This document shows, in pieces, positions 15,836 through 62,261 of a stretch of 64,000 nucleotides of DNA. This DNA is from SAR324 cluster bacterium (GTDB lineage Bacteria; SAR324; NAC60-12). The stretch lies in assembly GCA_014382365.1 (NCBI GenBank), contig JACNJW010000044.1, positions 7,368 through 71,367 of the forward strand, in the 5' to 3' direction. Numbering within the stretch: position 1 is the stretch's first letter; every line of letters begins with the position of its first letter. A model generated the notes under the pieces. The model worked only from the letters and a program-made list of their open reading frames with translations, ran no database searches and was not told the DNA's origin. The position numbers were made by a program, and so were the translations under genes.

Positions 15836-15982
15836 GTTCTCTACTTACTGAGCTTGCTGAAAGCTGTTAATATTTCAGTAAGCTCTAAAAGGAAAGCGCT
15901 CAGTAAACAGACATTAGAAGTTGTTATTCTCACAAATTGATGTTAGCATATGCTTACCTCAAACTTTAATGAAGAAAATTCC

Positions 15983-16651: not shown

Positions 16652-16689
16652 AACTGCACTTCAGCCATGTCTTTCCTCTTCTGCCGAAA

Positions 16690-18348: not shown

Positions 18349-18350
18349 CC

Positions 18351-19403: not shown

Positions 19404-19432
19404 AAATGGCAACGGAGGTGTTCCGGAACTGC

Positions 19433-20914: not shown

Positions 20915-20927
20915 AAAGTGTCTGTTA

Positions 20928-21839: not shown

Positions 21840-21943
21840 GAAATTGCAGTGGCTAAGGTGCACATTGGGGGTCTCCTGCCAGCACTATGGAGGTGGAGAC
21901 ACCCACTTACAAATGCAGAAAATGAGCCACTACTACAAAGCAA

Positions 21944-47618: not shown

Positions 47619-47721
47619 TTGTCAGGCAATCAGCTAAATATTTTAGTGAACCATCCGTTTCATTTGACAGAATATTCAGCCGTTACGACTTGGTAACTTA
47701 AACGATATTTCCTACGAGCAC

Positions 47722-47743
47722 CATGTTACAAATTTGTAACATG
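47722..47743. promoter_or_regulatory. Perfect 22-bp palindrome CATGTTACAAA|TTTGTAACATG in the 480-bp spacer upstream of the respiratory island
   Basis: Read directly; both arms are 11 bp with no mismatch. TGT-N12-ACA architecture, about 290 bp upstream of the candidate sigma-54 promoter. Confidence 0.45.
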
Positions 47744-48033: not shown

Positions 48034-48049
48034 GGGAATACACGTTGCA
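48034..48049 (+). promoter_or_regulatory. Candidate sigma-54 (-24/-12) promoter for the cytochrome c-FeS-Mo operon
   Basis: GGGAAT-ACACG-TTGCA. GG (48035-36) and GC (48047-48) have the canonical 12-nt register, and the -12 TTGCA is perfect. The -24 half matches only GG+A. It lies 50 nt before the ATG at 48099, and a sigma-54 activator is encoded at 60383. Confidence 0.35.
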
Positions 48050-48098: not shown

Positions 48099-48746
48099 AT
48101 GCTTAAAATACGGATTCCACATTTTATTCTGTTGACTATTGTACTGTTCACTACAGTTGTTATAGGCAATATTCTTGCTCTGCCCCCTGTTGCTGAGGCG
48201 GCCGGATTTATGGGGCATAAAAAGAAAAAGGGCTGTACCAAGTGCCATAAACAACAATATAAATCTTGGAAAAAGATGCGCCACGCCAAGGCGATGAAAA
48301 CCTTGATGCCCGGAGAATTTGCCGAAGAAAAAATAAAGGCTAAACTTGATCCGGATAAGAATTACATCAAGGATAAAAAATGTTTGAAATGCCACACCAC
48401 CGGACTCGACAAAGGCGGGTATTCTGTTGGGAACAAAAAAAAGATGAGAAGTTTCTATGCCGTTGGTTGCGAGGAGTGTCATGGGAAAGGGAAGAAATAT
48501 CAGAAGGTGAAGAATAAATACGAACAAGATGACTTTCCTCGCGATGAGGTCATTAAGGCCGGGATGAAATACGGGGAAAAGGAGGTCTGCGAAAAATGCC
48601 ATAATGATGACAGTCCTTTCAATGCCGCACTTGATCCCAAATATGCGTTTGATTACAAAAAAATGCTCAAAAAAGGAACACATAAACATTTCCGGCTGAA
48701 AAAGCATTCTCCCCGTAAGGGAAGTGAATGGTTATATGAGGATTAA
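48099..48746 (+). CDS. Periplasmic tetrahaem cytochrome c, lysine-rich
   Basis: Signal peptide (ALPPVAEA-AG). Four CxxCH motifs (CTKCH, CLKCH, CEECH, CEKCH). 43 Lys in 215 aa by my count. Confidence 0.85.
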   Translation: MLKIRIPHFILLTIVLFTTVVIGNILALPPVAEAAGFMGHKKKKGCTKCHKQQYKSWKKMRHAKAMKTLMPGEFAEEKIKAKLDPDKNYIKDKKCLKCHTTGLDKGGYSVGNKKKMRSFYAVGCEECHGKGKKYQKVKNKYEQDDFPRDEVIKAGMKYGEKEVCEKCHNDDSPFNAALDPKYAFDYKKMLKKGTHKHFRLKKHSPRKGSEWLYED

Positions 48747-48852
48747 CTGATTTTACCCTCGGTTTTTTTAAATTTGGAATAATGTCCACTGAATTCCGGG
48801 GAGCACCGGTGGATATTTTTGTTTTGATTAACAAATAATAGGAGACGGAAAG

Positions 48853-49506
48853 ATGGCTAAGAAAATAAAGTATGCAATGGTGATTGACATCAACCGTTGC
48901 ATTGGTTGCAAGGCCTGCATGACTTCATGCAAGGCTGAAAACGAAGTGCCCCTGGGGGTTTTCCGGAATCACGTACGTGAACTGGAGAAGGGGATTTATC
49001 CCAATATGAAGAAAATTTTTCTTCCGGTTTTGTGCAATCAGTGCGATAAACCGGCCTGTAAAGCGGCACTTCCAGAAGGATATGAAGATGCTATTACCAA
49101 ACGTGATGACGGCATTGTTGTTTGGGATGAAGCCAAATGCAAAGGCAAAGTAGCCGAAGCGGCGATCGAGGGTTGTCCGTACAGTAATCCCTATATGCAC
49201 CCACAAAAGAATGTTTTCCAAAAATGCGATTACTGTGCGCATCGTGTGGATGCCGGATTGCAACCCGCCTGCGTGGCGACCTGCATCGGCGGGGCAAGGA
49301 TTTTTGGCGATGTCAATGATTCGACCAGCGATGTTTTCAAATATATGGCAACTCACTCGACTCATGTTCTAAAACCGGAGGAAGGTACTGAGCCAAACAC
49401 ATATTATGTGGCTTTGGATAGAATAACTGCCGAACGGCTGGAAGGTTCACAACAATTGCCTCCCACGGATGCTACTGAAATTGCAGTTGAAAACTTCAGC
49501 GGTTAA
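48853..49506 (+). CDS. Fe-S (beta) subunit of the molybdopterin oxidoreductase; apparently a 3-cluster variant, no signal peptide
   Basis: CIGCKACMTSC, CNQCDKPAC..LP, C-x11-CP and CDYC..C...C. AGGAG RBS. Confidence 0.8.
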   Translation: MAKKIKYAMVIDINRCIGCKACMTSCKAENEVPLGVFRNHVRELEKGIYPNMKKIFLPVLCNQCDKPACKAALPEGYEDAITKRDDGIVVWDEAKCKGKVAEAAIEGCPYSNPYMHPQKNVFQKCDYCAHRVDAGLQPACVATCIGGARIFGDVNDSTSDVFKYMATHSTHVLKPEEGTEPNTYYVALDRITAERLEGSQQLPPTDATEIAVENFSG

Positions 49507-49542
49507 AACCATCATTTTGCACTAAATATATAAGGAGATACC

Positions 49543-52164
49543 ATGCAACTTAAACGAAGAAAATTTATCCAATTGGGAAGTGCCGCAGGTGCGGCATTGA
49601 CCGTTGGTAGCCAATTTGGCATGAAGGCTAAGGCGTCGGCATTGATGGAGTTGAAGCAAACTGGCAGTGCTTCTCCAACGGGAAAGAAAAATCAGGAAAT
49701 TCCTTACACTTGCCTGACTTGTAATATTGAGGACGGCGGAATCGCCTATGTCGAAGACGGCAGAATCCGCAGACTGGAGGGCAATCCCAATCATCCGGGA
49801 AATCGCGGGAAACTCTGTGCAAAAGGTAACGCCGGACATTTGCACGTCTATGATCCAACCCGAATTTTGAATCCGTTGAAACGGGTCGGCCCCAGAGGTA
49901 GCGGCAAGTGGAAGCGCATTACTTGGGACGAAGCCTTGAGCGAAGTCGCCGGAAAAATTCAGGGTGCGATGGACATTGATCCGATGTCCGTCATGTTTCA
50001 GTACGGACGCAACCGGACTCACGGTCTCGTTTATCGCTTTATGAATGCGCTGGGTTCCGGAACAGTGAATAATCACACCTCAATTTGCGAGTGCAATAAA
50101 AAAGTGGCTATGGAACACGCTTGGGGGCCGGACATCGAAACGCCTGACTTTGCGCACACTAAGTACATCCTCAACTTTGGCAGTAACTTGGCGGAAGCCG
50201 CTTATTTCCATAATCCTTACATCCAAAGACTGATGGACGGAAAAATAGAGAACAAGGCCAAACTTGTTACTTTTGATCCGCGTATGACCAACACGGGTGC
50301 AATCAGCGATGAGTGGATTCCCTTGAAGCCTGCAACCGATGGAGTTGTCGCCTTGGCAATGTGCAATGTAATTTTGCAGGAAGGACTGGCGGATACAGAA
50401 TTTATCCGCAAGTACACTAATGTTACGGCGCATCAGTTGACCGAACATCTCAAGCAATACACTCCGGAATTTGCCGAAAAGGAAAGTGGGGTTTCTGCGG
50501 ACACCATTCGCCGAATTGCGATTGAATTTGCAACCGCCGGCCCGGCCACGACTTACACTTATCGCGGCAGTTCCATGCACCAAAACGGTGTTTATACGGA
50601 GAAAGCCACGATGATGCTCAATGTTGTCACCGGAAATATTGAGAAACGTGGCGGCTTCAATTTGCCGCGCGGCTTAGGTTTTGGCGGCGGACCGGGACCG
50701 CATCCGCCCAAACCGCCTCACAGCATTCTGAAGTATCCACCGGAATATCCGTTAGCCAGTCATCATGTTTCTCACCATGTTTCTCATTCCATTTTGGAAG
50801 GACGGCAGAAGATCAATGTCTTTATGCTTTATTGTCATAATCCGCTCTATACTCAACCGGACGGAGACACTTGGAAACAAATTTTAACGAGTGAAAAGCA
50901 CATTCCTTACTCTGTTTCTTTCAGCATCAATATGGATGATTCGACGAAGTATGCCGACATCATCTTGCCGGATACGACTTTCTTGGAGCGTTGGGATCCG
51001 GAATCAATGCCATCCTCAGCTCTAGGCTGGGTCGGTTTGCGACAACCGGTTATTAAGCCTCTCGGTAATGCCAAAGCTTTCCGGGATACGATTTATGAAC
51101 TGGCGCAAAAAATCGACCCCGACGGTAAACGCGGTGTCAAGAAGTATTTCAGTTACGGTTCGGCGGAAAGCTATGTTAAAAATCAGCTTGAAGCAACTCC
51201 GGGACTGAAAGCCGCAGGTGGATTTAAGCTCCTCAAAAAATATGGAGTTTGGCCTTTTTATGATAAGAAAAAGGAGGATAACTTCAAGTTCGGCGCACAC
51301 GAGGAAACACTCAGCGAGAGTGATTTGGCCGGAACAACTTTGGAGGGACGTACTTTGATGAAAGGCGGAAAGTCTGTCGGTTTAATGGTGGACGGAAAAG
51401 CTGTTCGAGGTTTCGGCACTCCTTCACGCACTTTCCAAGTCAATGTTCCTGAGTGGGAGCATTACGGTTTTGAACCGATGCCACATTATGAAGCGATTGA
51501 GGATCATAAGCGGATGAAGTCTGATGAACTGTTGTTGAGTACATACAAGCCCAATGTTCATACTCAATCCCGTACTCCAAATCTCAAGTGGTTACAGGAG
51601 CTTCACCATCGTAATCCTGCTTGGATCAACACCGAAACCGCAAAAGCTCGCGGAATCGGAAACGATGATTTGATCAGAATAACAAGTCCAATCGGCTACA
51701 TGGTCACAAAGGCTCGGGTTACAGAGGGCATTCACCCCCAAGTAGTGGCCATCGCCACTTCCAGCGGTATGTCAAACAAGTCTACTTTGGGCAATTACGG
51801 CGGCTCCAAAGACCCGGATATTGTGCAGAATACCTGGTGGGATGATACCGGTGTCCATCCAAACCAAATAATTCCTGTCAGTACTGACCCCATCGGTGGC
51901 GGTATGGGCTGGTTTGACACGGTGATCACCGTTACCAAAGCCAAATCCGGCGATAAATACGGAGACACGCGTTCCGATCGGGGAGCAGCACGGAAAGCCT
52001 TTGAGAAGGCACTTTCCAAAGCTACCAAAGTTCGAACTGAAGATGCGCATAACACTACAGCTAAAACCAATGTTCGTGACGAAATACATACGGAGGTTGG
52101 AGGTGTTTTTGGCACAACAGCAAAACTTCGTGATTTTGAAGACCCGTTCAATACCACTGCTTAG
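49543..52164 (+). CDS. Tat-exported Mo/W-bis(pyranopterin guanine dinucleotide) oxidoreductase catalytic subunit, Psr/Phs/Ttr/Arr-like branch, substrate unknown
   Basis: Twin-arginine signal KRRKFIQLGSAAGA. FS0 region C57-x2-C60-x3-D64-x27-C92. Probable Mo-ligand context NHTSIC. Molybdopterin-binding pattern throughout. AAGGAGA RBS. Confidence 0.85.
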   Translation: MQLKRRKFIQLGSAAGAALTVGSQFGMKAKASALMELKQTGSASPTGKKNQEIPYTCLTCNIEDGGIAYVEDGRIRRLEGNPNHPGNRGKLCAKGNAGHLHVYDPTRILNPLKRVGPRGSGKWKRITWDEALSEVAGKIQGAMDIDPMSVMFQYGRNRTHGLVYRFMNALGSGTVNNHTSICECNKKVAMEHAWGPDIETPDFAHTKYILNFGSNLAEAAYFHNPYIQRLMDGKIENKAKLVTFDPRMTNTGAISDEWIPLKPATDGVVALAMCNVILQEGLADTEFIRKYTNVTAHQLTEHLKQYTPEFAEKESGVSADTIRRIAIEFATAGPATTYTYRGSSMHQNGVYTEKATMMLNVVTGNIEKRGGFNLPRGLGFGGGPGPHPPKPPHSILKYPPEYPLASHHVSHHVSHSILEGRQKINVFMLYCHNPLYTQPDGDTWKQILTSEKHIPYSVSFSINMDDSTKYADIILPDTTFLERWDPESMPSSALGWVGLRQPVIKPLGNAKAFRDTIYELAQKIDPDGKRGVKKYFSYGSAESYVKNQLEATPGLKAAGGFKLLKKYGVWPFYDKKKEDNFKFGAHEETLSESDLAGTTLEGRTLMKGGKSVGLMVDGKAVRGFGTPSRTFQVNVPEWEHYGFEPMPHYEAIEDHKRMKSDELLLSTYKPNVHTQSRTPNLKWLQELHHRNPAWINTETAKARGIGNDDLIRITSPIGYMVTKARVTEGIHPQVVAIATSSGMSNKSTLGNYGGSKDPDIVQNTWWDDTGVHPNQIIPVSTDPIGGGMGWFDTVITVTKAKSGDKYGDTRSDRGAARKAFEKALSKATKVRTEDAHNTTAKTNVRDEIHTEVGGVFGTTAKLRDFEDPFNTTA

Positions 52165-52296
52165 GCCGGTGTTGTATATTTTTGATTGAGCCGTATGCTC
52201 CTGCTCTCTTGGGGAGAATGCGGTTTAATCTTGAAGTCAAACTTTTGGTGTGTGTTCAATTTATTGCTCCCTACATTTTCCAATCATCATTTTCCA

Positions 52297-52995
52297 ATGT
52301 CATCATCCAAACAAGTCAATGTAAGGCCAACTTCGACAGAAATGGCGGAAAGCGGGCCTTGCGAAGCAGAAAATCGTGCCAATGTTTATGAGTTTCTTTC
52401 ACGGATTTTTTTGGAAGAAATGGATTCCGGTTTACTGCAAGCTCTGCAATCGGACGAGGTGGCGGGAATATTTCTGGATTGGGGAATCAATTTTCAAGAA
52501 GATTTGGCCGGAGAAAACCAAAACGAAATTTTAGAACAATTAGCTCATGCCTATTGCGACACTTTTGTAACTGGCGAAGATCCGGTTTTTTCTCCGTATG
52601 AATCAGTCTGGAAAACAGGTTGTCTTGAGGGCAAGTCAACTTTACTTGTTGAAGAATTCTATACAAAATGTTCGCTGGGGCTTCCAAAAAACTGTCCGGA
52701 ATTTGCGGATCATTTGGGAATCGAATTTGATTTAATGAGCCGACTTGCAAAAAAAGAGGCTGAATTTCGGCTTGCCGCTCAAACTGCACAAGCAGAAAAT
52801 TATCACAAGTTTCAACAGGCTTTTCTCAAAAATCATCTTTTAGCTTGGGGTCCCGAATTTTCGGCAAAAATAGAACGCTGGGCTTCCCATCCTTTTTATC
52901 AACATATCGGTAAATTAAGCTGTGAATTCCTCAGAATGGAGGCGGAAGAATTTGAGTTGGAAAGCGAACCTTACATGGAATTTTCAGAAAACTGA
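52297..52995 (+). CDS. TorD/DmsD-family redox-enzyme maturation chaperone
   Basis: ANVYEFLSRIFLEE, SPYESVW and ADHLGIEFDLMSRL. Start uncertain (52186, 52297 or 52342). Confidence 0.7.
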   Translation: MSSSKQVNVRPTSTEMAESGPCEAENRANVYEFLSRIFLEEMDSGLLQALQSDEVAGIFLDWGINFQEDLAGENQNEILEQLAHAYCDTFVTGEDPVFSPYESVWKTGCLEGKSTLLVEEFYTKCSLGLPKNCPEFADHLGIEFDLMSRLAKKEAEFRLAAQTAQAENYHKFQQAFLKNHLLAWGPEFSAKIERWASHPFYQHIGKLSCEFLRMEAEEFELESEPYMEFSEN

Positions 52996-53024
52996 ATCCA
53001 AAAAATATTCCTCAAAAACAGCTT

Positions 53025-53489
53025 GTGAAGTATTTGAAATTTTATGCTATTTTATTTATTTTGCTTGGGGGAGGAGCGGGTGGTTATTTTCTATTGTCGG
53101 GAAATTTTATTCCTCAGGAGCGTCGATTATCTGCGGAAACCGTGATTGAAAAAATAACCGGAGAAGAGAAAAACGACTATTTGTTGATCGATGTGCGTGA
53201 GCCTTGGGAAAATCAGGCTATTCGCATTCCCGGAAGTAAACTTATTCCACTGAAAATAATTGAAAGTGAACCTTACGAAGAAATACAAAAACTTAACAAA
53301 AATCAAAAACTGATTCTTTATTGCACGGTTGGAGTCCGCTCGGATAAGGCATACGGCATTTTTACTAAATTGGGATTTGATCAAGTTTATGTGATGAACG
53401 GAGGGCTGGATGCGTGGATGGAAGAACAAGGGCCGTTGGAAACTCCAAGCATTCCGCAATGGATTGAAGGAAAAGGATGTGAAAGCTGA
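53025..53489 (+). CDS. Single-domain rhodanese (sulfurtransferase) with an N-terminal TM anchor
   Basis: LIDVREPWE, active-site loop YCTVGVRS and MNGGLDAW. GTG start. N-terminal segment is FYAILFILLGGGAGGYFLL. Confidence 0.8.
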   Translation: MKYLKFYAILFILLGGGAGGYFLLSGNFIPQERRLSAETVIEKITGEEKNDYLLIDVREPWENQAIRIPGSKLIPLKIIESEPYEEIQKLNKNQKLILYCTVGVRSDKAYGIFTKLGFDQVYVMNGGLDAWMEEQGPLETPSIPQWIEGKGCES

Positions 53490-54669
53490 CTTGGAAAAGA
53501 CGATTCTCAAACTAACTGAAAATGCTACACTTTTGGGAGAACTAGAAATTATCGGTGAGAGATGTCTGAATCAATCCGTGCAAAATTTAGGCTGTTCCAA
53601 ATGTACAGATGTGTGTCCGGAAAACGCTATTCAACTGAACAGAAAACCGGAAATTGACCGCTTGAAATGCAGTTCTTGCGGATTGTGTGTTGGGTCATGC
53701 GAAACTTCAGTCTTTGTTTTTTCAAAATTATTCAACAATGTTTTCTTCAAAGCACTCTCCGGAACAAACACCGAAGAAACGGAAATACAGAGCGAATCTC
53801 ACAACGCAGTCTTGATGTGCGGGGGAATTCCGCAAGATTCATCGCCTTCGTTGTTAGCAAATGTACCGATTTGTTTAGCGGTTTTGGATGAGGTGCATTT
53901 CATTAAATTGGCAGAAAAATTTGGCCACCTTACTTTGGATTGTAGTGGTTGCAGTGATTGTCGTTTTGAAAAGGGATTGAACTTAATCCGGAAGCGCGTC
54001 TCAGAATCCGGAGCTTGGTTGGGAAGTCTTGGTATCTCAGGACGGGTGAGCATCACAACCGATTCCGGTTTCCTTGTAGAGGGGGAAAATAAAATTATCC
54101 CTTTGATACGAGAGGCCTCCCGCTCACGGCGAGACCTTTTTCGACGCGCTCGTAATCGTGGTGTGTTGGAAGTTGCAAACAGATTTGCTGATGCGGAAGC
54201 AAATCCGGAAGTCAGGGAAACTCCTACTCCGGAAAGAAGGAGGGCACTAAAATCATTATATTTGGCGCACGGAGAAAATTTATTGTCTCCGGTATTACCG
54301 GAAAACTTACCGCTTCACATTGTTTCAACAAAAGAGACCTGTCAACTTTGCAGTGAATGTACGGTGCGTTGTCCGGGAAAAGCCTTGCTCAAAATGGAAA
54401 ACAGAGTTGAGGCGAAACTGTTTTTTGAACCGTTAAATTGTTTGGGATGCACTGATTGCGAACAGTTTTGTCCACATGATTCGCTTGAAATTCGTGCTTT
54501 GACGAAAAATGATTTTCCCTTAAAGGAAAGAGTGCTTTTCAGTCGCGGAAAAACCAAATGTGATTCTTGCGAAAAGCCTTTCATTTCTCAAAGTACGGTT
54601 TCGACTTGTTCTGCTTGCTTGCGGTATAAGTCAGTTGATGATTCAATGTTAGACATTTTGGGATGGTAG
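53479..54669 (+). CDS. Cytoplasmic polyferredoxin (multiple 4Fe-4S motifs) with a C-terminal C-x2-C...C-x2-C knuckle
   Basis: CSKCTDVCP, CSSCGLCVGSC, CSGCSDC, CQLCSECTVRCP, CLGCTDCEQFCP and CDSC-x14-CSAC. No signal peptide. Start uncertain (GTG 53479 or TTG 53491); the ORF-track start 53410 lies inside the rhodanese gene. Confidence 0.7.
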   Translation: MKADLEKTILKLTENATLLGELEIIGERCLNQSVQNLGCSKCTDVCPENAIQLNRKPEIDRLKCSSCGLCVGSCETSVFVFSKLFNNVFFKALSGTNTEETEIQSESHNAVLMCGGIPQDSSPSLLANVPICLAVLDEVHFIKLAEKFGHLTLDCSGCSDCRFEKGLNLIRKRVSESGAWLGSLGISGRVSITTDSGFLVEGENKIIPLIREASRSRRDLFRRARNRGVLEVANRFADAEANPEVRETPTPERRRALKSLYLAHGENLLSPVLPENLPLHIVSTKETCQLCSECTVRCPGKALLKMENRVEAKLFFEPLNCLGCTDCEQFCPHDSLEIRALTKNDFPLKERVLFSRGKTKCDSCEKPFISQSTVSTCSACLRYKSVDDSMLDILGW

Positions 54670-54701
54670 TGAACAATTAAACTGCAAAACATCCTATTTT
54701 T

Positions 54702-54767
54702 AGCCACAGATTTTCCCGGATAAATACGGATAAAAACATCCGTAAAAAGCTGCGTAAATCTGTGGCT
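54702..54767. repeat. Nested inverted repeat between the polyferredoxin and the second cytochrome gene
   Basis: The outer 12-bp arms AGCCACAGATTT (54702-13) and AAATCTGTGGCT (54756-67) are perfect. Inner hairpin is TACGGAT-aaaaac-ATCCGTA (54725-44). GGATAAA is directly repeated 10 nt apart. Confidence 0.6.
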
Positions 54768-54784
54768 GATAGCAAAACTAAAAT

Positions 54785-55615
54785 ATGAGCACCAATAAAA
54801 TAACTTTTTACAGCGTAAGGTACGCTGTTGCTTTTTGCGCAATTTTCTTTTTTGCCTTTTCTTTCTCAAATTCTAGCCTGTCAATAGGACAGGAGGTTGA
54901 GGAAGTTGTCGAAAATAAAACTGAAACCGATGCTGAAGAAGAAAGTGAAGAGGAAGACGAAGAAAGCGATGATGAGGAAGAGGAGGACGATGAAGCAATG
55001 CCTTGGGATGATGAAGATGATGAAGAAATCAAAGTTTTTAAGTTTCCACAATCAACAGAATTTCTACCAAATTTTCCTATTTTTAAAGTCAAGTATGCAG
55101 GCTTTCCGGAATTCAAAATCAAGGGCCGGTTGCGAAGTTCGGAGTACTTTCTTTGCAGTGAGTGCCACGACGGCGTTGAGCTAAAACCGAGACCGATCAT
55201 TCGGGAATTGCGTAAAGAACACACCAACATTAACTTGGATCACATCAAACAAGAACACGGCACAGAAAAGTTTTGGTGTACCACCTGCCACGACACGAGC
55301 CGTCCCGATTATTTGGTCGGCCTGAAAAAACAGTCGATTCATTTTGATCAATCCTTTTTACTCTGTGGTCAGTGCCATTCGCAAAATCAAAAGGATTGGT
55401 TGTTCGGCGCACACGGCAAACGCACCGGAAACTGGAACGGTGAACGCACGATTTTGCTTTGTACAGAATGCCATAGCCCTCATTCTCCAGCCCTTGAACC
55501 TGCTTCGCCCAACCCGCCACCGCCGCCACGTCAGGGGCAAATTTTGGTCAAATCTGTTCATCCGGAAGGGCCTCGAAAAACTTGGGATAAATTTATTTAT
55601 TCAAAACAACATTGA
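54785..55615 (+). CDS. Tetrahaem cytochrome c (c3/paired-CxxCH type) with an N-terminal anchor and a ~45-aa polyacidic tract
   Basis: CSECH, CTTCH, CGQCH and CTECH. Acidic tract EVEEVVENKTETDAEEESEEEDEESDDEEEEDDEAMPWDDEDDEE (nt 54893-55027). Pro-rich tail. Confidence 0.8.
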   Translation: MSTNKITFYSVRYAVAFCAIFFFAFSFSNSSLSIGQEVEEVVENKTETDAEEESEEEDEESDDEEEEDDEAMPWDDEDDEEIKVFKFPQSTEFLPNFPIFKVKYAGFPEFKIKGRLRSSEYFLCSECHDGVELKPRPIIRELRKEHTNINLDHIKQEHGTEKFWCTTCHDTSRPDYLVGLKKQSIHFDQSFLLCGQCHSQNQKDWLFGAHGKRTGNWNGERTILLCTECHSPHSPALEPASPNPPPPPRQGQILVKSVHPEGPRKTWDKFIYSKQH

Positions 55616-55619
55616 TCTT

Positions 55620-56582
55620 ATGAGCGAAAAAAATAATCCCGCCAAAACTGTTGAGACTCCGGAAAACTCCGACGTTTCCCGGAGAGAGCTTTTTAAGAAA
55701 ACCGCCATCGCCGGAACCATTGCCGCCGCCGGAGCGGTCTCGACAACGATTGCCGCAAGTAATGTTGAGTCGGGAGGTCTTTCTGACGCCTTGGATGAGT
55801 TTTTTCAAAAACATTATCAAGAGATGAGCAAAGAGGAAATGCAAAAAGCAATCGCCCGTCTCGAACGCAAAGCCAAAGAAAAACACGGTAAGGAAATTCA
55901 CATCGGCAACACTCCACCTCTTGAAGGTGTGTTATTCGGTTATGCGTTGAATATTTCCAAATGTAAAGGCTATCGGAAATGTGTTGATGCCTGTGTTGCC
56001 GAAAATAACCAAAATCGCGACACAACGATTCAATACATTCGCGTTTTGGAACTGGAAAATGAGTCGATGAATTTTGAGGAAGCCGATCATTATTACGACC
56101 GCGAAACAGTTCCTCATACCGGAAAAAAGTATTTTCCGATTCAGTGCCAACAATGCGAAAATCCGCCTTGTGTAACCGCTTGTCCGGTCGAAGCGACTTG
56201 GAAAGAAGCGGACGGTATCACCGTAATTGATTACAACTGGTGCATCGGATGTCGCTATTGTGCAGCCGCTTGTCCGTATTGGGCGAGGAAATTTAATTGG
56301 AGTGAGCCGAGTATTCCTGAAGAAAAAATCAATCCTGAAACTCATTATCTGAGCAACCGTCCACGAATGCGCGGCGTAATGGAAAAATGCACCTTCTGCC
56401 TCCAAAGAACACGCAAAGGTAAATTGCCAGCTTGCTTGGAAGCGTGTCCGACAGGCGCCAGAGTTTTTGGAAACATTTTAGATCCAAAAAGTGAAATACG
56501 CTATGTTTTGGAAAATAAAAAGGTTTTCCGCTTAAAAGAGGAACTTAATACAGAACCGAAATTTTGGTATTACAGCGACTAA
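55620..56582 (+). CDS. Tat-exported 4-cluster-type Fe-S protein (NrfC/HybA/DsrO/PsrB-like) of the membrane module
   Basis: SRRELFKKTAIAG twin-arginine signal. CKGYRKCVDAC (Tyr in place of the 2nd Cys), CQQCENPPCVTACP, CIGCRYCAAACP and CTFC...C...CP. Start re-picked at MSEKNN (55620). Confidence 0.8.
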   Translation: MSEKNNPAKTVETPENSDVSRRELFKKTAIAGTIAAAGAVSTTIAASNVESGGLSDALDEFFQKHYQEMSKEEMQKAIARLERKAKEKHGKEIHIGNTPPLEGVLFGYALNISKCKGYRKCVDACVAENNQNRDTTIQYIRVLELENESMNFEEADHYYDRETVPHTGKKYFPIQCQQCENPPCVTACPVEATWKEADGITVIDYNWCIGCRYCAAACPYWARKFNWSEPSIPEEKINPETHYLSNRPRMRGVMEKCTFCLQRTRKGKLPACLEACPTGARVFGNILDPKSEIRYVLENKKVFRLKEELNTEPKFWYYSD

Positions 56583-56611
56583 CTTGAACATCAGAATCAC
56601 AGGCATAAATC

Positions 56612-57811
56612 ATGGAATTCATTCGCTTTTGCTTTGACGGAGTCAAGGAAATTTTTAGGGGAGGAAAACTTTATTGGAGTTGGATGGGTGTTTTGGCGGT
56701 TGTGGCCTTGTTTGGTGCTTCTGCTTATTTGCAACAATTACAACAGGGTTTGGTTGTGACGGGAATGAGCGATCAAGTTTCTTGGGGCATTTATATTGCC
56801 AGTTTCACCTCTTTGGTCGGAATTGCTGCCGCTGCAATTATGTTGATTATTCCGGCCTATATTTTTCACGATATGGATATCAAAGAAATTGTTATTCCTG
56901 CCGAAGGCTTGGCGATTGCGGCTTGCGTTATGAGCATGATGTTTGTGCTGATAGATTTAGGTCGTCCGGATCGAATGTGGCACCTGCTTCCTTATATCGG
57001 TCGTTTTAACTTTCCAAAATCAATGCTGGCTTGGGACGTGTTAGTGCTGAATGTTTATTTATTTCTGACCATGATAATTTCCGTCTATCTCCTTTTTTCC
57101 AAATACAAAGGAAAAGAGCCTAAATTTTCAATTTATTTTCCGTTGGTTATTCTTTCAATTTTCTCAGCACTTTCCATTCACACCGTAACGGCCTTTTTGT
57201 TTTCTTCCAATGTTGCTCGCTCGTTTTGGCACACAGGACTTTTGGCTCCGCGTTTTATTGCATCGGCATTTTCCGCAGGCCCGGCCTTTTTCTTGTTAAC
57301 TGCGCTTGTGATGCGCTACACAAAAGTTTTTCCGGTTAAAGAAATTGCGATAAAACGCTTGACCACGATTATCACAATTGCATTAGAAATCAATCTCTTT
57401 TTATTGTTAGCGGAGGTCTTCACAGAGTTTTATCATCAAACCGAACATAGTGCTTCTGCGGCTTACCTCTTTTTCGGATTGGGCGGTAAAACTGCTTTGG
57501 TTCCCTGGATTTGGTCGTCAGTGTTTTTGAATATCAGTGCTTTAGTTATCTTCGTTTTGCCTCTGAAAAAGAATACGATTTTCCTGGCACTGGCTTGTCT
57601 CTTTCTGGTGGTGGGAGTTTGGATTGAGAAGGGCATGGGATTAGTCGTACCGGGATTCATACCGACACCGTTGGGCGAAGTTTATGAATATACTCCAACT
57701 TTTATCGAGGTTCAAATTTCTATGGGAGTTTGGGCTATCGGTCTGATGCTCTACACAATTTTAGCCAAAATCTCAATTGCCGTCAATTTGGAGCGGATAC
57801 GTTTAACTTGA
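56612..57811 (+). CDS. NrfD/PsrC-family integral membrane quinone-interacting subunit
   Basis: 399 aa, about 10 TM segments. N-terminal MSDQVSWGIYIASFTSLVGIAAA is typical of NrfD. Confidence 0.7.
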   Translation: MEFIRFCFDGVKEIFRGGKLYWSWMGVLAVVALFGASAYLQQLQQGLVVTGMSDQVSWGIYIASFTSLVGIAAAAIMLIIPAYIFHDMDIKEIVIPAEGLAIAACVMSMMFVLIDLGRPDRMWHLLPYIGRFNFPKSMLAWDVLVLNVYLFLTMIISVYLLFSKYKGKEPKFSIYFPLVILSIFSALSIHTVTAFLFSSNVARSFWHTGLLAPRFIASAFSAGPAFFLLTALVMRYTKVFPVKEIAIKRLTTIITIALEINLFLLLAEVFTEFYHQTEHSASAAYLFFGLGGKTALVPWIWSSVFLNISALVIFVLPLKKNTIFLALACLFLVVGVWIEKGMGLVVPGFIPTPLGEVYEYTPTFIEVQISMGVWAIGLMLYTILAKISIAVNLERIRLT

Positions 57812-57959
57812 ATACAGTTTTGCCTCACTCCGCCCACAAATTAGCAAGAGGAAGAGAAAACGTATCGAAAGGCGGAACAGATATTTCATCGCTTCCACCG
57901 CAACTTCTCCACAAAGTCCAGCGTCTATTCTCCAACAGATTGACATAAACTTAATCCTG

Positions 57960-57988
57960 TGGACAAAACAAGTCCGATGGAGTAAAAT
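57960..57988 (+). promoter_or_regulatory. Candidate sigma-70 promoter for the sensor operon
   Basis: TGGACA (57960-65), 17-nt spacer, TAAAAT (57983-88), about 60 nt before the ATG at 58051. Confidence 0.3.
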
Positions 57989-58050
57989 CACAGCACGTCG
58001 CCGAACTGCACAATTCCTTCAATTCCAAACTCACAAATATCAAAATTCAA

Positions 58051-58929
58051 ATGGCCAAAGTCTTTGTTAAAAATAAGAAATGTTGCCGTTTCAGTATTTT
58101 GGTTTTTTTACTGTTTCTGAATCTTGTTTTTTCCGGACAACTTATAGGGGCGGAATCAGCAGTACGCTTCGGATTGACTCCTGTCATTTTAGATAATCAG
58201 AGAGATTTTCTGGAAAATTGGCAAAAATTTCTGGAGAAACATTTAGAGCGTCCCGTCATTTTTATTCAACGGCGTACCTACGGTGAAATTACGGAAATGT
58301 TACTTCAAGAACAATTGGATATTGCTTGGATTTGCGGGCGTCCTTATGTGCAACATCAACAAAAATTGCAACTGCTGGCTGTACCGCTTTATCGAGGAAA
58401 GCCGCTCTACCAATCATATTTGATTGCCTTAAGCGACAACACTAAGATAGATTCAATCTTAGACTTGAAAGGGAAGGTGTTCGCCTATTCTGATCCGGAC
58501 TCCAACTCTGGTCATTTGGTCCCCAATGTCATGTTGAGTAGAGTAGGCAAAGATCCAAAAACATTTTTTGCTAAAACTTTTTTCACTTGGTCGCATAGGG
58601 ATGTTGTTTCAGCGGTTGCTTCTGGATTGGCGCAAGGCGGTGCGGTGGACGGCTATGTTTGGGAAACACTCAATCTTGTACATCCTGAATTGACCCAACG
58701 TACCCGGATATTGAACCGTTCTCAAAAATTCGGTTTTCCGCCGTTGGTTGCTCGCCCTTCTCTACCGAAAAATGAATTGTTACTTATACAGTCCGCATTG
58801 CTTCAAATGAACAAAGACCCAAACGGAATTCAACTTTTGCAAAAATTAAATCTGGACGGGTTTGTTGAGGGTGATGACGCTTTATTTGACGGCATCCGCG
58901 AATCTTTGCTTTTTTTAACGGGCTACTGA
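58051..58929 (+). CDS. PhnD-fold periplasmic binding protein, probable ligand sensor partner of the kinase (AioX/ArxX-like role)
   Basis: Signal peptide. VRFGLTPV...DIAWICG...YSDPDSNSGHL...GGAVDGYVWE is the phosphonate-bd fold pattern. No ABC permease or ATPase is adjacent; a histidine kinase starts 4 nt after its stop. Confidence 0.7.
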   Translation: MAKVFVKNKKCCRFSILVFLLFLNLVFSGQLIGAESAVRFGLTPVILDNQRDFLENWQKFLEKHLERPVIFIQRRTYGEITEMLLQEQLDIAWICGRPYVQHQQKLQLLAVPLYRGKPLYQSYLIALSDNTKIDSILDLKGKVFAYSDPDSNSGHLVPNVMLSRVGKDPKTFFAKTFFTWSHRDVVSAVASGLAQGGAVDGYVWETLNLVHPELTQRTRILNRSQKFGFPPLVARPSLPKNELLLIQSALLQMNKDPNGIQLLQKLNLDGFVEGDDALFDGIRESLLFLTGY

Positions 58930-58933
58930 AACG

Positions 58934-60370
58934 ATGTTCCGGAATGTTTCCTACCACTACAAAATCCCACTGAGTTTCAGTGTTGTCATAATATTGACTG
59001 GAATGATTGTTACCACAGCGTTGGTTTGGCAGACGTATGAAAATTTACGCCGCGATATCTTCCGGAACGCTGTTGAAGTGGGAGCCGCTTTGTCTGGAAC
59101 CTTGCAATTATCCATAAAACATGATGATGTCTGGAGAGCTTATCGTTTGCTAGCGGACACCGGACAGGCAGCCGATAGAGACGGCGGATTACTCTTGGTA
59201 GTACTCGACGAAGAATACAAAGTTTTTGCCTCCAACCAGCCTCGACAATTTCCCGTATTGGCTTCTTTGGAAAATCTCAGTCCGGAGTTTGCCGGTTTGA
59301 ATAAATCGCTACTGCAAAACAATAATAATGAAGCCCGTCCGATTGTACAAGGTGCAACTTTGTGGATGTACGTAGTGCACCCAATCCACGAATACGGGAC
59401 AAGGTTGGGAGTGTTATTGATAGGCTACGCCCATTCGCAATTTTTACCAAGATATTATGAAATTGTTTGGAATGTCAGCATCTCGTCTTTGGGGGTGATG
59501 TTAATTTTGTTGCCTTTAGGATGGTATTTGGGCAAAAATATGGCAGAACCTTTGGTAGAACTTTCAAATTGTATGGAGATGGTCGGTCAAATTCCGCCGG
59601 ATGAAATTGAATACAATTTGAAAGAAGCCGACGATGAAATCGGTTTGTTGAGTACACGTTTTAGGGAAATGCTGGAAGATTTGCGAGTCAAACAGCAATT
59701 CGAGCGGCAAGTATTGGTTTCCGAACGTTTAGCGGCAATCGGTCGAATGTCGGCGGGAGTTGCTCACGAAATTAATAATCCTCTGGGTGGAATGCTCAAT
59801 GCTATCAATACTTTCAAGCAACACAGACATGAAGAGGGTGTGCCGGAAAAAACCCTTTACTTACTGGAGCGTGGATTAGGGCAAATTCAAGAAACAGTTT
59901 CGGCTTTACTGGTGGAGAGTATCCCGGAAAGCCATCCTTTGAGTTTTCAAGATGTTGAGGATATCCGGACCTTACTTCATGCAGACATTAATAAAAAGAA
60001 CATCAACTTAGTTTGGGAAAATAATTTGGTAATACCGGCCTTACTACCTTCGACTCAAATTAGGCAAATTTTAATGAATCTTTGTCTAAATGCGCTTCAA
60101 GCCGCACCGGAAGAGAGTACTGTTTTTTGCAAAGTTTGTGCTGTAGAAGAAGAAAATTTATTGATTGAGGTGCGTAATGAGGGTGGAGATCTGGACGATG
60201 AAACCATGGAATTGCTGTTTGAACCTTTTGCCCACCAAAATTCCGGCGGTATCGGTTTAGGGTTATGGGTTACTTATCAAATCGTCCGTCAACTCGGAGG
60301 AGAAATTGTTGTTAAAAATCAAGATGGAACCGTCTCATTCTCGGTAGGCATTCCTCTGAGAAACTCCTAA
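58934..60370 (+). CDS. Sensor histidine kinase (2 TM, periplasmic domain, HAMP, HisKA, HATPase_c)
   Basis: H-box SAGVAHEINNPL. N, G1 and G2 boxes (LMNLCLNALQA, NEGGDLD, GGIGLGLW). Confidence 0.85.
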   Translation: MFRNVSYHYKIPLSFSVVIILTGMIVTTALVWQTYENLRRDIFRNAVEVGAALSGTLQLSIKHDDVWRAYRLLADTGQAADRDGGLLLVVLDEEYKVFASNQPRQFPVLASLENLSPEFAGLNKSLLQNNNNEARPIVQGATLWMYVVHPIHEYGTRLGVLLIGYAHSQFLPRYYEIVWNVSISSLGVMLILLPLGWYLGKNMAEPLVELSNCMEMVGQIPPDEIEYNLKEADDEIGLLSTRFREMLEDLRVKQQFERQVLVSERLAAIGRMSAGVAHEINNPLGGMLNAINTFKQHRHEEGVPEKTLYLLERGLGQIQETVSALLVESIPESHPLSFQDVEDIRTLLHADINKKNINLVWENNLVIPALLPSTQIRQILMNLCLNALQAAPEESTVFCKVCAVEEENLLIEVRNEGGDLDDETMELLFEPFAHQNSGGIGLGLWVTYQIVRQLGGEIVVKNQDGTVSFSVGIPLRNS

Positions 60371-60382
60371 AACGTAATTATT

Positions 60383-61714
60383 ATGGTGCATATTTGTTTG
60401 GTTGAAGACGACCCCATCATGGGGGAATCGCTGGCGCATCGTTTCGCACTTGAACGCTTAACCTGTCATTGGTTTCAAGATGCGCGTAGTGCTTTGGAGG
60501 CAGTTAAAACAGAACATTATTCCGTGTTGATCAGTGATATTCGTCTTCCGGATATGGATGGGGAAAGCCTGTTCAAATCACTCATTGAACTCGGTGAACC
60601 ACCACCGCCGACATTGTTCATTACCGGTTATGGTGCTATTGATCAAGCGATACGCCTACTAAAACTGGGAGCACAGGACTACATTACCAAACCCTTTGAT
60701 CTGGATTTACTTTTGAGTAAATTGCGGAGCTTGAGTCCGGGGTTGTTTCCAAAAAAAGATGAACAGCCGCTGGAATTAATTTTGGGTATTTCCGAGCAAT
60801 TGCAAAAAATCCAACGGATGTTGAGCAATTTAGGAAAGCATGATGTCGGTGTTTTGTTCACCGGTGAATCCGGAGTCGGCAAAGAATATGCGGCCCGTTA
60901 TCTACATGACTGCTCCGGAGACAAAGGCAACCGACCTTTCATCGCCACCAATTGCGCCGCCATTCCGGAAAGTCTGTTGGAAACCGAACTGTTCGGACAC
61001 GAAAAAGGGGCATTTACTGGCGCCATACACATGCGGCGGGGTGTTTTCGAACAAGCCAATAACGGGACTCTTTTTTTAGATGAAATCGGCGATATGCCCT
61101 TGTCCATGCAAGTTAAACTGTTGCGGGCCATCCAAGAGCGTTCAATCTGTAGAGTCGGCGGAGAAAAAATGATCCCCATCAATTTGCGTCTCATCAGTGC
61201 GACAAATCATGACCCAATAGCTTTGGTGGAAAACGGAAAATTTCGGGAAGATTTGTTCTATCGCATCAATATCATTCATATCCACATCCCACCACTGCGG
61301 GAACGTCAAGAGGACATTCTTTGGTTTTCAAAAAAGTTTATGGAACTCTGCACACGTGAACAAGGTGAACGGCGGGTATTGACTCGGAGCGGAGAACAGT
61401 ATTTGTTCGATCAACCTTGGAAAGGCAACCTTCGGGAACTGAAGCATTGCATCCAACGTGCTTGTATCCTTTCCGGACAAGAAACAATAGGAGCCTCGGA
61501 ATTAGATGTGTATGGCGTTGAGCTTACCTCCACTAAAGAACAGGCGGTTGCAGATTTAAAAAGCTATTTGGAAGTTTGCGAACAACGACGCATCCTGCAA
61601 ATGTTGGAGAAATATAAATGGCGCATCGGGGACACTGCCGCCACTCTGGGAATCAGTCGTAAAAATTTATGGGAAAAAATGAAAAAATATGATATTTCTA
61701 ACCACGGTCACTGA
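60383..61714 (+). CDS. Sigma-54-dependent response regulator (NtrC/AioR class: REC-AAA+-Fis HTH)
   Basis: REC domain (LISDIRLPDMDG), GESGVGKE, GAFTGA sigma-54 contact loop, C-terminal HTH (TAATLGISRKNLWEKMKKY). Confidence 0.9.
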   Translation: MVHICLVEDDPIMGESLAHRFALERLTCHWFQDARSALEAVKTEHYSVLISDIRLPDMDGESLFKSLIELGEPPPPTLFITGYGAIDQAIRLLKLGAQDYITKPFDLDLLLSKLRSLSPGLFPKKDEQPLELILGISEQLQKIQRMLSNLGKHDVGVLFTGESGVGKEYAARYLHDCSGDKGNRPFIATNCAAIPESLLETELFGHEKGAFTGAIHMRRGVFEQANNGTLFLDEIGDMPLSMQVKLLRAIQERSICRVGGEKMIPINLRLISATNHDPIALVENGKFREDLFYRINIIHIHIPPLRERQEDILWFSKKFMELCTREQGERRVLTRSGEQYLFDQPWKGNLRELKHCIQRACILSGQETIGASELDVYGVELTSTKEQAVADLKSYLEVCEQRRILQMLEKYKWRIGDTAATLGISRKNLWEKMKKYDISNHGH

Positions 61715-61871
61715 AATTTTTCTAATTGATTATCTCATATACATTAAGTTTTTCATTTTGAATCCATAATTACGAATTCAAATTATAATTTACCTTGAAA
61801 AATAGCAGATTTAAGGCAGAATAATACTGTAATTCTGACCTTTGATTTTACTCATCCAAAAAGGAGTCTTT

Positions 61872-62261
61872 GTGAAAAAATTTACCGTTGATCATCAAAA
61901 TTATCATATTTTCAAAACTAAAAGCGGTGCCAAAACCCAGTCTGTGCATTTTCAGTGGGGAAAGTTTGATTTCCGCATGACTTTTGCCGGTAGCGGAAAA
62001 GCTACACAGAGAAATGCGGCCTTGGGTTTTAGCGCTGCTGACGGCAGTCAATTCTCAGTAACCAAATTTGAGGTTCTCTACCAGAATGAGTGGTTTGAGT
62101 TTGTCAAACCTACTGCTCACGGTATGCAACTGGAAGAAACCCTCTGGCGCAGAAACGAACGGGATTATTACGTTGAGTTTCCAAAGGATCTGAAAAGTGC
62201 GGCGCAGGAAATTTGTGCTGAAGAACTCGGCCTGGTCCAGCAGGAAAAAGTTGCTGCCTAG
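61872..62261 (+). CDS. Small hypothetical protein (129 aa)
   Basis: GTG start with AAAGGAG 5 nt upstream. No motif recognised. Confidence 0.45.
   Translation: MKKFTVDHQNYHIFKTKSGAKTQSVHFQWGKFDFRMTFAGSGKATQRNAALGFSAADGSQFSVTKFEVLYQNEWFEFVKPTAHGMQLEETLWRRNERDYYVEFPKDLKSAAQEICAEELGLVQQEKVAA

Follow-up and report, generated by a model that had tools for sequence, protein, structure and literature searches.

A block of 12 genes at positions 48099–61714 of a 64,000-nt stretch of SAR324 cluster bacterium DNA (contig JACNJW010000044.1; this whole stretch is referred to below as the window) has the features expected of an arsenite-induced periplasmic arsenic oxidoreductase system, most likely an arsenite oxidase, whose catalytic clade is uncharacterised. 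We propose this function tentatively, at a little less than an even chance, based on sequence comparisons. The first-pass annotation of this DNA held that the substrate of the system could not be read from sequence. That view was not sustained, since arsenic chemistry is indicated by an AioX-family sensor with a complete pocket, by AioR-box-like sites, by relatives with neighbouring ars genes, and by a Gly-Arg marker in the catalytic subunit, A.

Relatives were searched for in one genome per GTDB species, which identified at least 296; 80 of these were fetched, and the loci compared numbered 83. In about 75 of the 80 fetched loci, the genes for a regulator, a kinase and a sensor (R-S-X) are divergent from a second set in the order iron-sulfur (FeS) subunit B, NrfD-type subunit C (~285 aa), catalytic subunit A, the chaperone TorD, three unknowns, a polyferredoxin and one unknown. 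We refer to these as B-C-A-type clusters. Their hosts are mostly Betaproteobacteria, including Aromatoleum, Azoarcus, Sulfuricella, Thiobacillus, Gallionella, Sideroxydans, Rhodoferax, Hydrogenophaga, Sulfuritalea and Accumulibacter.

Regulatory module and catalytic subunit

The sensor gene of the window (58051–58929; all 12 genes are on the plus strand) encodes a Phosphonate-bd protein of the AioX/ArxX type. In PDB sequence searches, X matched AioX of Rhizobium NT-26 (6esv) with an E of 1.7e-67 and ~55% identity over 248 residues, the arsenate sensor ArrX (6x6b) with an E of 3.5e-42, and true phosphite or phosphonate binders at 1e-13 or worse. The AioX pocket is formed by Y88, C106, Y131, S161, S163, H192 and D210, of which C106 bonds arsenite (Badilla et al. 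2018). All seven residues are present in X, as Y77, C95, Y120, S151, S153, H182 and D200, and they were kept in 73–76 of the 76 related loci having X. In addition, X has the Val-Ile/Phe loop that is typical of AioX and ArxX, a loop that ArrX is without.

A different metalloid oxyanion that fits an AioX-like pocket, such as antimonite, selenite or tellurite, could instead be the substrate or inducer, which we consider quite improbable. The cluster is present in Hydrogenophaga taeniospiralis (L034), strains of which oxidise Sb(III) (general knowledge), and we know of no identified enzyme for anaerobic Sb(III) oxidation. With respect to selenite, one of the genes srrE, srrD and srrF presumably encodes a rhodanese. 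These are the extra genes by which srr selenite-reductase operons are marked, according to a citing paper's account of Wells 2019. However, when ten oxyanions were tested in vitro, AioX and ArxX bound arsenite only, and neither antimonite nor selenate nor any other oxyanion in the set (Badilla 2018). The related loci are also rich in ars genes, but as ars genes handle Sb(III) too, this is not decisive.

The gene for X is followed by those for a sensor histidine kinase, S, with two transmembrane (TM) segments and HisKA and HATPase-type matches (58934–60370), and for a sigma-54 response regulator, R, with a receiver, an AAA+ domain containing GAFTGA and a helix-turn-helix (60383–61714; NtrC/AtoC models 340 bits). 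The three genes are contiguous in the window, and S was co-conserved with X and R in 68–76 loci. Based on these similarities, X-S-R is predicted to be an AioXSR/ArxXSR-like three-component module.

Putative binding sites for R are present upstream of the first gene of the block. The palindrome GTTACGACTTGGTAAC at 47682–47697 (AioR-box-like upstream activating sequence 1, UAS 1) begins 417 nt upstream of the first ATG, and GTTACAAATTTGTAAC (UAS 2) is located at 47725–47740. Both are exact GTTAC-N6-GTAAC sequences and they are the sole two exact copies in the window. The site of AioR determined by footprinting is GTTCGGATTTCCGAAC (PMC5335332); UAS 1 fits 14 of the 16 positions of the 16-bp AioR motif, the pair of palindromes fits 13–14, and the outer half-sites match. 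The exact palindrome was identified in 50 of the 83 loci, nearly always in the X-B intergenic region, and the pair was kept in L001 and L004, two close relatives of the block, with one copy in a third (L082). Between these sites and the first gene is a candidate sigma-54 promoter of the -24/-12 type, GGGAAT-N5-TTGCA (48034–48049, plus strand, 50 nt before the ATG). It is the sole GG-N10-GC sequence upstream and was kept in L001. A scan of the window with the canonical sigma-54 consensus performed no better than chance, and the candidate came from a relaxed GG-N10-GC scan; terminator and sigma-70 scans were at background level. The related loci L081 and L082 have clear sigma-54 promoters, TGGCATCCATTTTGC and TGGTACGGGGGTTGC.

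Genes for ArsR, ArsC, ACR3, ArsA or ArsD were found within 10 kb of A in 18 of the 83 loci. They are directly adjacent in Azoarcus sp. KH32C and in two further loci, L072 and L047, and on the plasmid of Azoarcus sp. KH32C arsRCDAB abuts the regulator gene. No Arr or Arx genes were found within the fetched loci.

Subunit A (49543–52164, 873 aa) is a Mo/W-bis(pyranopterin guanine dinucleotide) catalytic subunit with a KRRKF twin-arginine translocation (Tat) motif and the domains PF04879, PF00384 and PF01568. It did not pass any NCBIfam cut-off, scoring 368 bits on the PhsA model (cut-off 694), 189 on ArrA (1600) and 111 on TtrA (1750). From an exhaustive search for A-related proteins 150 representatives were taken, and those that are Arr/Arx-like scored 416–667 bits on the ArrA model, with 456 bits on the TtrA model for the Ttr-like representative. 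In a neighbour-joining tree of 317 N-terminal columns (200 bootstrap replicates; solved ArrA and PsrA included, but no true ArxA) the family of window A formed its own clade with the uncharacterised clade P0128, with 97% bootstrap support. None of the 200 replicates placed it with the ArrA clade, and 0.5% placed it with PsrA. Membership of PhsA, PsrA or TtrA was ruled out by the curated cut-offs, the tree and the motifs, and a canonical arx system by gene order, motif and the ArrA-model score. In public databases, the relatives are named only "molybdopterin-dependent oxidoreductase" or have generic KEGG/COG names.

Residues that were invariant in 80 family members are C57-x2-C60-x3-D64...C92 (C-x2-C-N-I-[QE]-D-G...C), G155-R156 and H178-T-S-x-C182-E-x-x-K186-K187. 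The first of these, the FS0 motif, has an invariant Asp at the usual place of the third Cys in the DMSO-reductase family, and it was the same in 80 related loci. Based on its ligands, FS0 may be a [3Fe-4S] cluster or an Asp-ligated cluster with a shifted potential. The same Asp was observed in the neighbouring uncharacterised clades P0128, P0150, P0157 and P0227.

When aligned to ArrA (6cz7), one of the two closest solved structures to window A, the family invariants fall on R165, H189, K198 and the Mo ligand C193, the roles of which we took from the 6cz7 alignment, PMC12949373 and general knowledge. PsrA is without equivalents of the Gly-Arg, His and Lys in the alignment. Around the Gly-Arg, the family has an invariant [YW]GR[ND]R (YGRNR in the window) that shares just the Gly-Arg core with the (R/K)GRY of Arr and the xGRGWG of Arx. 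According to a 2026 study (PMC12949373), every enzyme of arsenic metabolism (Arr, Arx and Ttr-like As(V) reductases) has Gly-Arg and genuine Ttr does not; the latter is defined by Tat leaders on both A and B and a TtrA without the GR motif.

These results bear on a further explanation, in which the substrate is a sulfur or thio-arsenic compound (polysulfide, thiosulfate, tetrathionate or thioarsenate), induction by arsenite belongs to an arsenic-stress response and the rhodanese encoded in the block delivers or takes away sulfane sulfur on the periplasmic side. The best family models do point towards sulfur enzymes (PhsA with 368 bits for A, and TtrB, at 181 bits and below the cut-off, for B), and the B-C-A order of the relatives is ttr-like. 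A rhodanese gene is present in the window and in L082, L002 and L031, many carriers are sulfur oxidisers (Sulfuricella, Thiobacillus, Sulfuricystis), and a rhodanese gene beside the arx and ars genes of Thioalkalivibrio has been published as arsenite-induced. However, all these scores are far under the curated cut-offs, the family is outside the Psr/Phs clade, and the Gly-Arg that it carries is missing from PsrA and reportedly from true Ttr. Further, B of the relatives does not have the Tat leader of TtrB, and the rhodanese gene is absent from L081 and was not demonstrable in B-C-A-type clusters. We consider a sulfur or thio-arsenic substrate distinctly unlikely.

The cytochromes, the NrfD module and the absence of subunit C

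The first-pass annotation predicted that A and B form a soluble enzyme wired by cytochromes to an NrfD module encoded separately, and comparison with the relatives supported this prediction. The whole block was found again on four other contigs, with subunit A identities to window A of 96% (L001), 89% (L004) and 71% (L081 and L082); the L004 contig stops at the NrfD gene, and the XSR trio is upstream in L081 and downstream in L082. This recurrence indicates that the association of the genes is conserved and is not a chance juxtaposition, and the AB and NrfD modules are co-conserved. In these four loci, in the window and in L002 (Candidatus Desantisbacteria), there is no C gene between B and A.

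The absence of C coincides with changes in B (48853–49506, 217 aa, without a signal peptide). Wherever C is present (75 loci), B retains all 16 Cys that ligate four [4Fe-4S] clusters. Where C is missing, Cys group III is degenerate (6 of 6 loci), and such degeneration was seen in none of the 75. In window B, group III is C-x12-CP in place of CxxCxxCxxxCP, and Leu replaces the fourth Cys of group II. This Cys is also lost from B of L001 and L004, so that in these three proteins one [4Fe-4S] cluster has lost three of its four ligands. B of L081 and L082 has a changed spacing (C-x4-C-x3-C-x3-CP) and that of L002 is short of two Cys. Judged from its Cys residues, window B would therefore hold only three complete [4Fe-4S] ligand sets. 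The wire of clusters in FdnH, NarH and DmsB ends with that of group III, which faces the membrane anchor. The loss of C together with the degenerate group III indicates that the AB unit bears the marks of departure from an anchor.

Upstream of B in the window, L001, L004, L081 and L082 is a gene that is absent outside the C-less loci. In the window (48099–48746) it encodes a periplasmic tetrahaem cytochrome c with four CXXCH motifs and 20% Lys (net charge +24), which is homologous to cytochrome c554 of Nitrosomonas, a soluble electron shuttle (PDB 1bvb, E 8e-27; PF13435, 5e-22, 79 bits against a cut-off of 20.8). On the NCBIfam CycA equivalog it scored 124 bits against a cut-off of 400, and it is accordingly a member of the c554 family and not an orthologue. 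The net charge of this protein was +22 to +26 in three lineages (window, L081 and L082).

The second module of the window is formed by three genes. The first encodes another tetrahaem cytochrome c (54785–55615) with four CXXCH motifs, a signal or anchor, weak Pfam matches only and a 40-residue poly-acidic linker (net -20); its orthologues were found in L081, L082 and L072. Pairing of this acidic protein with the basic c554-type cytochrome by electrostatics is weakly suggested by their compositions, the weakness of the idea being that the second cytochromes of L081 and L082 are near neutral. The second gene encodes a Tat FeS protein of the four-cluster DsrO/NrfC/ActB-C-terminal type (55620–56582) with an RRELFK Tat motif, which scored 186 bits on the DsrO model (cut-off 200) and has ActB chains of alternative complex III (ACIII) as its nearest structures. 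The third encodes an NrfD-family integral membrane quinone-interacting subunit (56612–57811; PF03916, 2e-35), whose nearest structures are ACIII ActC chains. It passed the DsrP equivalog, with 390 bits against a cut-off of 350, though the rest of the dsr system is absent from the block, and automatic annotation would probably mislabel it as a subunit of the sulfate-reduction complex. We rejected the module as a DsrJOP fragment of a dsr locus, as DsrM, DsrK and DsrAB are not among the 12 genes and the cytochrome has four haems and no DsrJ match.

A cytochrome c/Tat-FeS/NrfD module is near AB in 6 of 6 C-less loci, in three gene orders and at least two distant lineages. This finding makes it very improbable that the two modules of the window are independent neighbours, with the NrfD module serving another pathway and AB and the c554-type cytochrome having unrelated partners. 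A 116-nt spacer with a strong inverted repeat does part the modules, between the polyferredoxin gene and the second cytochrome gene. In addition, L072 (15469–18626) and L047 (17790–18320) are B-C-A-type loci with their own anchor that also have an orthologue of the second module, arranged as FeS – NrfD – tetrahaem cytochrome (identities of 48%, 47% and 34%). Promoter scans, however, showed no sigma-70-like or sigma-54-like promoter standing out ahead of the second module of the window. Furthermore, the module of L072 and L047 is in the same arsenic island as ACR3, arsC and arsR, and so seems to belong with the arsenic system even in loci with an anchored AB. The repeat in the spacer is a perfect 12-bp inverted repeat, AGCCACAGATTT / AAATCTGTGGCT (54702–54767, plus strand), that encloses a second hairpin, ACGGAT-N6-ATCCGT, at 54726–54743. 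From its position between the modules and its structure, it may act in attenuation or in the processing or stability of the RNA.

Two of the C-less loci have further peculiarities. In L002 (1319–8063), from a distant phylum, the order is cytochrome c – Tat FeS – NrfD (two open reading frames (ORFs), possibly frameshifted) – B with a Tat leader – A – rhodanese. The cytochrome differs from that of the other C-less loci, and the arrangement looks as if it were ancient or had arisen independently. In L082 an extra pentahaem cytochrome c gene (15884–16684), absent from the window, is located between NrfD and X-S-R.

Proposed mechanism, direction of electron flow and carriers

Based on these observations, we propose that the system operates as follows. 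Arsenite would bind periplasmic X at Cys95 in the AioX-type pocket, X would activate S, and S would phosphorylate R. Binding of R to both GTTAC-N6-GTAAC sites would then fire the sigma-54 promoter before the c554-type gene. TorD, and probably the polyferredoxin, would mature A and B before their joint Tat export. A maturation role is known for the polyferredoxin NapF; the role of ArxB2, an analogous polyferredoxin of Arx systems, has been reported as unclear. In the periplasm AB would be a soluble dimer, with no anchor gene between B and A and the anchor-facing cluster of B lost, and would most likely oxidise arsenite to arsenate at the Mo centre. Electrons would pass from Mo to FS0, in its Asp variant, through the three clusters of B to the basic tetrahaem c554-type shuttle and on to the second tetrahaem cytochrome, which would be docked on the FeS/NrfD membrane module, the reductant of quinone. 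Alternatively, the c554-type shuttle could feed other c-type acceptors.

The arsenite-type sensor, the c554-type protein and the lithotrophic or denitrifying hosts point weakly to oxidation as the direction of flow. Cytochrome c554 acts in an oxidative chain in Nitrosomonas.

The same system could run in reverse as a respiratory arsenate reductase, with electrons passing from quinol through the NrfD/FeS/tetrahaem module and the c554-type cytochrome to soluble AB, much as CymA feeds ArrAB in Shewanella. There are precedents for such an enzyme, as Ttr- and Psr/Phs-type non-Arr enzymes of Melioribacter roseus are arsenate-induced, with its Ttr locus preceded by X-S-R and an ars locus, and Ttr-like As(V) reductases have been reported in Anaeromyxobacter PSR-1. 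Further, the arsenate-binding residues R165, H189 and K198 of ArrA are conserved in the family. The DsrP-like NrfD subunit suggests menaquinone, such subunits being typical of menaquinone-using anaerobes (general knowledge), and the closest genome record is labelled Deltaproteobacteria. Against reduction, X is nearer to the arsenite-binding AioX and ArxX than to the arsenate-binding ArrX, and the tyrosine of the ArrA (R/K)GRY is absent. Most carriers are aerobic or denitrifying lithotrophs of the Betaproteobacteria, and arsenate reduction driven by ubiquinol is thermodynamically poor (general knowledge). Hosts other than that of the window, which are mostly lithotrophic or denitrifying Betaproteobacteria, are expected to be ubiquinone-based. 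We regard arsenate reduction as unlikely, though as a serious contender.

Several points weigh against the arsenite oxidase that we propose. The best family-model match of A was PhsA and not ArrA, and the equivalent of ArrA Tyr166 is not conserved in the family. XSR phylogeny has been reported to track the organism and not the enzyme, so that similarity to AioX alone does not fix arsenite over arsenate. The -24/-12 candidate of the window agrees only weakly with the consensus, at 8 of 11 positions, and no ars genes were found in the 64-kb window. The rhodanese of the operon suits sulfur chemistry better than arsenic and, in a menaquinone host, transfer from arsenite to quinone through a DsrP-like subunit would be uphill. 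Lastly, Arx is already present in several carriers (M52, J5B and RIFOXYD12_FULL_61_37), in which a second arsenite oxidase would be partly redundant.

One of these carriers, strain M52 (AP019373, L112), has a complete family cluster with its own XSR. M52 oxidises arsenite microaerobically and with nitrate, which has been credited to arx since aio and arr are absent. The ArxA of M52 was reported to be 92 residues longer than that of MLHE-1 and to have Arx motifs. Based on this published description, it is presumably distinct from the family member, which has 877 aa. About 5 kb past the family cluster, on the opposite strand (17441–22634), L112 has another molybdoenzyme set (A of 860 aa, ArrB-like FeS protein of 230 aa, a protein of 122 aa and TorD) as well as a pair of genes for flavocytochrome c sulfide dehydrogenase. 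This second molybdoenzyme set may not be the arx operon; the C-terminal half of its A scored 51 bits on the ArrA model.

Taken across its hosts, the family could represent a third line of respiratory arsenite oxidases, phylogenetically independent of Aio and Arx, with its own AioXSR-type control and in at least ~290 GTDB species. The window would have a rewired form of it, with a c554-type shuttle and a separate cytochrome/FeS/NrfD quinone reductase in place of the membrane anchor. We offer this broader proposal as a reasonable possibility rather than as the probable outcome.

The remaining genes of the block lie between A and the second module. The first encodes a TorD/NarJ-family chaperone (52297–52995; PF02613, 2.7e-26; TorD model 94 bits). 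It is followed by a rhodanese gene (53025–53489; PF00581, 2e-17) whose product has an N-terminal TM segment or signal anchor and a C-x4-R loop, and by a polyferredoxin gene (53410–54669) for a protein with 25 Cys, matches to several Fer4 families and no signal peptide. The polyferredoxin was kept in 70 of the 83 loci. The window protein is collinear with that of Azoarcus KH32C (E 1e-21) and, on this comparison, is the predicted orthologue of the polyferredoxin of B-C-A-type clusters. Its ATG at 53410 is preceded by GGAGG, and its start overlaps the 3' end of the rhodanese gene by 80 nt (53410–53489); in L082 the overlap is just 13 nt. The overlap may be genuine, or one of these two ends may have been called wrongly.

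Four small proteins encoded after TorD (~150, 230, 155 and 130 aa; e.g., L083 15437–17045 and 18172–18570, compare L023 and L112) were kept in 59–69 of the 83 loci, in B-C-A-type clusters, are absent from the window and have no Pfam match on record. A secreted 152–156-aa protein of these clusters, "hypG", was rejected as a rhodanese (E 0.055, with only a GGxxAW motif in common).

The 12 ORFs of the ORF list fill 48099–61714 with short spacers. Searches of Pfam, NCBIfam and PDB sequences upheld all the domain calls of the first-pass annotation, and all 12 genes are real, with the starts of two more likely elsewhere: that of TorD at ATG 52297 (the ORF is open from 52186) and that of the Tat FeS protein at 55620. 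The block had also been called an island. Its composition gives no evidence for horizontal transfer, as the GC content is 0.41–0.48 inside and 0.39–0.47 outside, and recent transfer is thus not supported; it is flanked by miaA and miaB, with housekeeping genes around. Directly after the R gene is a 139-aa ORF (61842–62261) with no Pfam or NCBIfam match, and four ORFs elsewhere in the window (74–1822, 19433–20950, 28597–30084 and 41502–42803; 433–582 aa) had no Pfam match at E <=1e-8. Rfam had no matches in the window.

Marker genes (aioA, arxA, arrA and, lately, ttrA-like genes) serve to predict how mobile arsenic is in aquifers, paddy soils and hot springs. The clade described here has the regulatory and active-site hallmarks of arsenic enzymes and occurs, often beside ars operons, in hundreds of species, among them Fe- and S-oxidisers that are common in groundwater. 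Should its substrate be arsenite or arsenate, the potential for arsenic cycling is underestimated by present surveys. If it is an arsenite oxidase, activity that is credited to arx alone in some strains or environments, such as in the M52 assignment, would be partly owed to this enzyme. The window and its B-C-A relatives also form a before-and-after pair for the change of an anchored molybdoenzyme into a soluble, cytochrome-wired form. The steps that can be seen are that C was lost, the distal FeS cluster of B decayed, a shuttle of the c554 type was gained and an NrfD module was recruited. The family has several cultured carriers, among them Azoarcus sp. KH32C, Aromatoleum buckelii U120 and A. 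toluclasticum MF63, Sulfuricystis thermophila M52 and S. multivorans J5B, Hydrogenophaga taeniospiralis and Hydrogenophilus thermoluteolus, and the proposal is directly testable.

Comparison with known systems

The combination of genes in the block had been taken to be no named system, which was correct for the catalytic clade but not for the logic of the system. That logic (XSR, molybdoenzyme, TorD and polyferredoxin) is that of Arx-, Arr- and Ttr-like arsenic enzymes, and FeS molybdoenzymes for arsenic under XSR regulation are already known (Aio, Arx, Arr and Ttr-like), as is a soluble AB fed by a cytochrome (ArrAB with CymA). We found no published description of the cluster in the literature searched, and the catalytic clade, the FS0 Asp signature and the variant with c554, a three-cluster B and a separate NrfD module seem to be undescribed there. 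There may be overlap with one of the Ttr-like or Psr/Phs-like As(V) reductases known from M. roseus, Anaeromyxobacter PSR-1 and Pyrobaculum, above all MROS_1774 of M. roseus; the TtrA model sets the clade apart from them indirectly. Locus scans with the neighbouring representatives P0131 and P0264 returned Planctomycetota, Omnitrophota, Nitrospinota and similar metagenome-assembled genomes and no Anaeromyxobacter, Geobacter or Melioribacter. The candidate for "alternative arsenite oxidation" in Thioalkalivibrio was set aside as a cytoplasmic, Soe-like and unrelated enzyme.

The Arx system (arxB2ABCD with arxXSR; Alkalilimnicola ehrlichii, Azoarcus sp. CIB and M52) resembles the block in its AioX-family X, kinase and sigma-54 activator, and in a palindromic activator site that is putative in the block. 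It shares with the B-C-A-type relatives a Mo subunit, a four-cluster FeS protein, an NrfD anchor, TorD and a polyferredoxin, and the Gly-Arg marker is common to both. However, window A belongs to another clade (189 bits on the ArrA model, compared to 416–667, and 0/200 bootstraps), the family has YGRNR where Arx has xGRGWG, and Asp replaces the third Cys of FS0. The gene order of Arx is B2-A-B-C-D, whereas that of the family is B-C-A or, in the window type, cytochrome-B-A, with cytochromes in place of an anchor adjacent to AB.

The Ttr- and Psr/Phs-like non-Arr arsenate reductases (MROS_1076, MROS_1774 and those of Anaeromyxobacter sp. PSR-1 and of Pyrobaculum aerophilum) are similarly molybdoenzymes outside Arr that are tied to arsenic. 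The Ttr locus of M. roseus has an ars locus next to it and, ahead of it, genes for a kinase, a regulator and a phosphonate-binding-like protein. The Ttr-like enzymes share the GR motif and the ttr-like B-C-A order of most of our relatives. They differ in that window A has 111 bits on the TtrA model against 456 for the Ttr-like representative, in that family B is without the Tat leader that defines TtrB, and in hosts, those of the family being mainly Betaproteobacteria and not Fe- or sulfate-reducers. True Ttr is further removed by the cytochrome-B-A order of the window in place of ttrBCA, by B without a Tat leader in the window, L023 and L083, and by the GR present in A. SrrA has been published as not separable from PsrA and PhsA in trees, and the family of window A is outside the Psr/Phs clade.

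For the electron-transfer part, the Shewanella ArrAB enzyme with CymA is similar in having a soluble AB tied to quinone by a multihaem cytochrome with no NrfD anchor (general knowledge). It is unlike the block in its catalytic clade, and the window has a three-subunit quinone module with a c554-type shuttle and XSR/sigma-54 control. In the Nitrosomonas chain of HAO, c554, cM552 and quinone, a soluble oxidising enzyme likewise hands electrons to c554 and then to a membrane quinone reductase (general knowledge), whereas in the window the donor would be a molybdoenzyme and not HAO, and the membrane partner an NrfD/FeS/cytochrome module and not cM552. The trio of a cytochrome c, a Tat FeS protein and an NrfD membrane protein is shared with NrfBCD, DsrJOP and ACIII, NrfD-family quinone modules whose partners are soluble redox proteins of the periplasm. 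Compared to these systems, the window cytochrome has four haems and no match to the DsrJ, NrfB or ActA models and, unlike ActB of ACIII, the window FeS protein does not have a fused molybdopterin-like domain.

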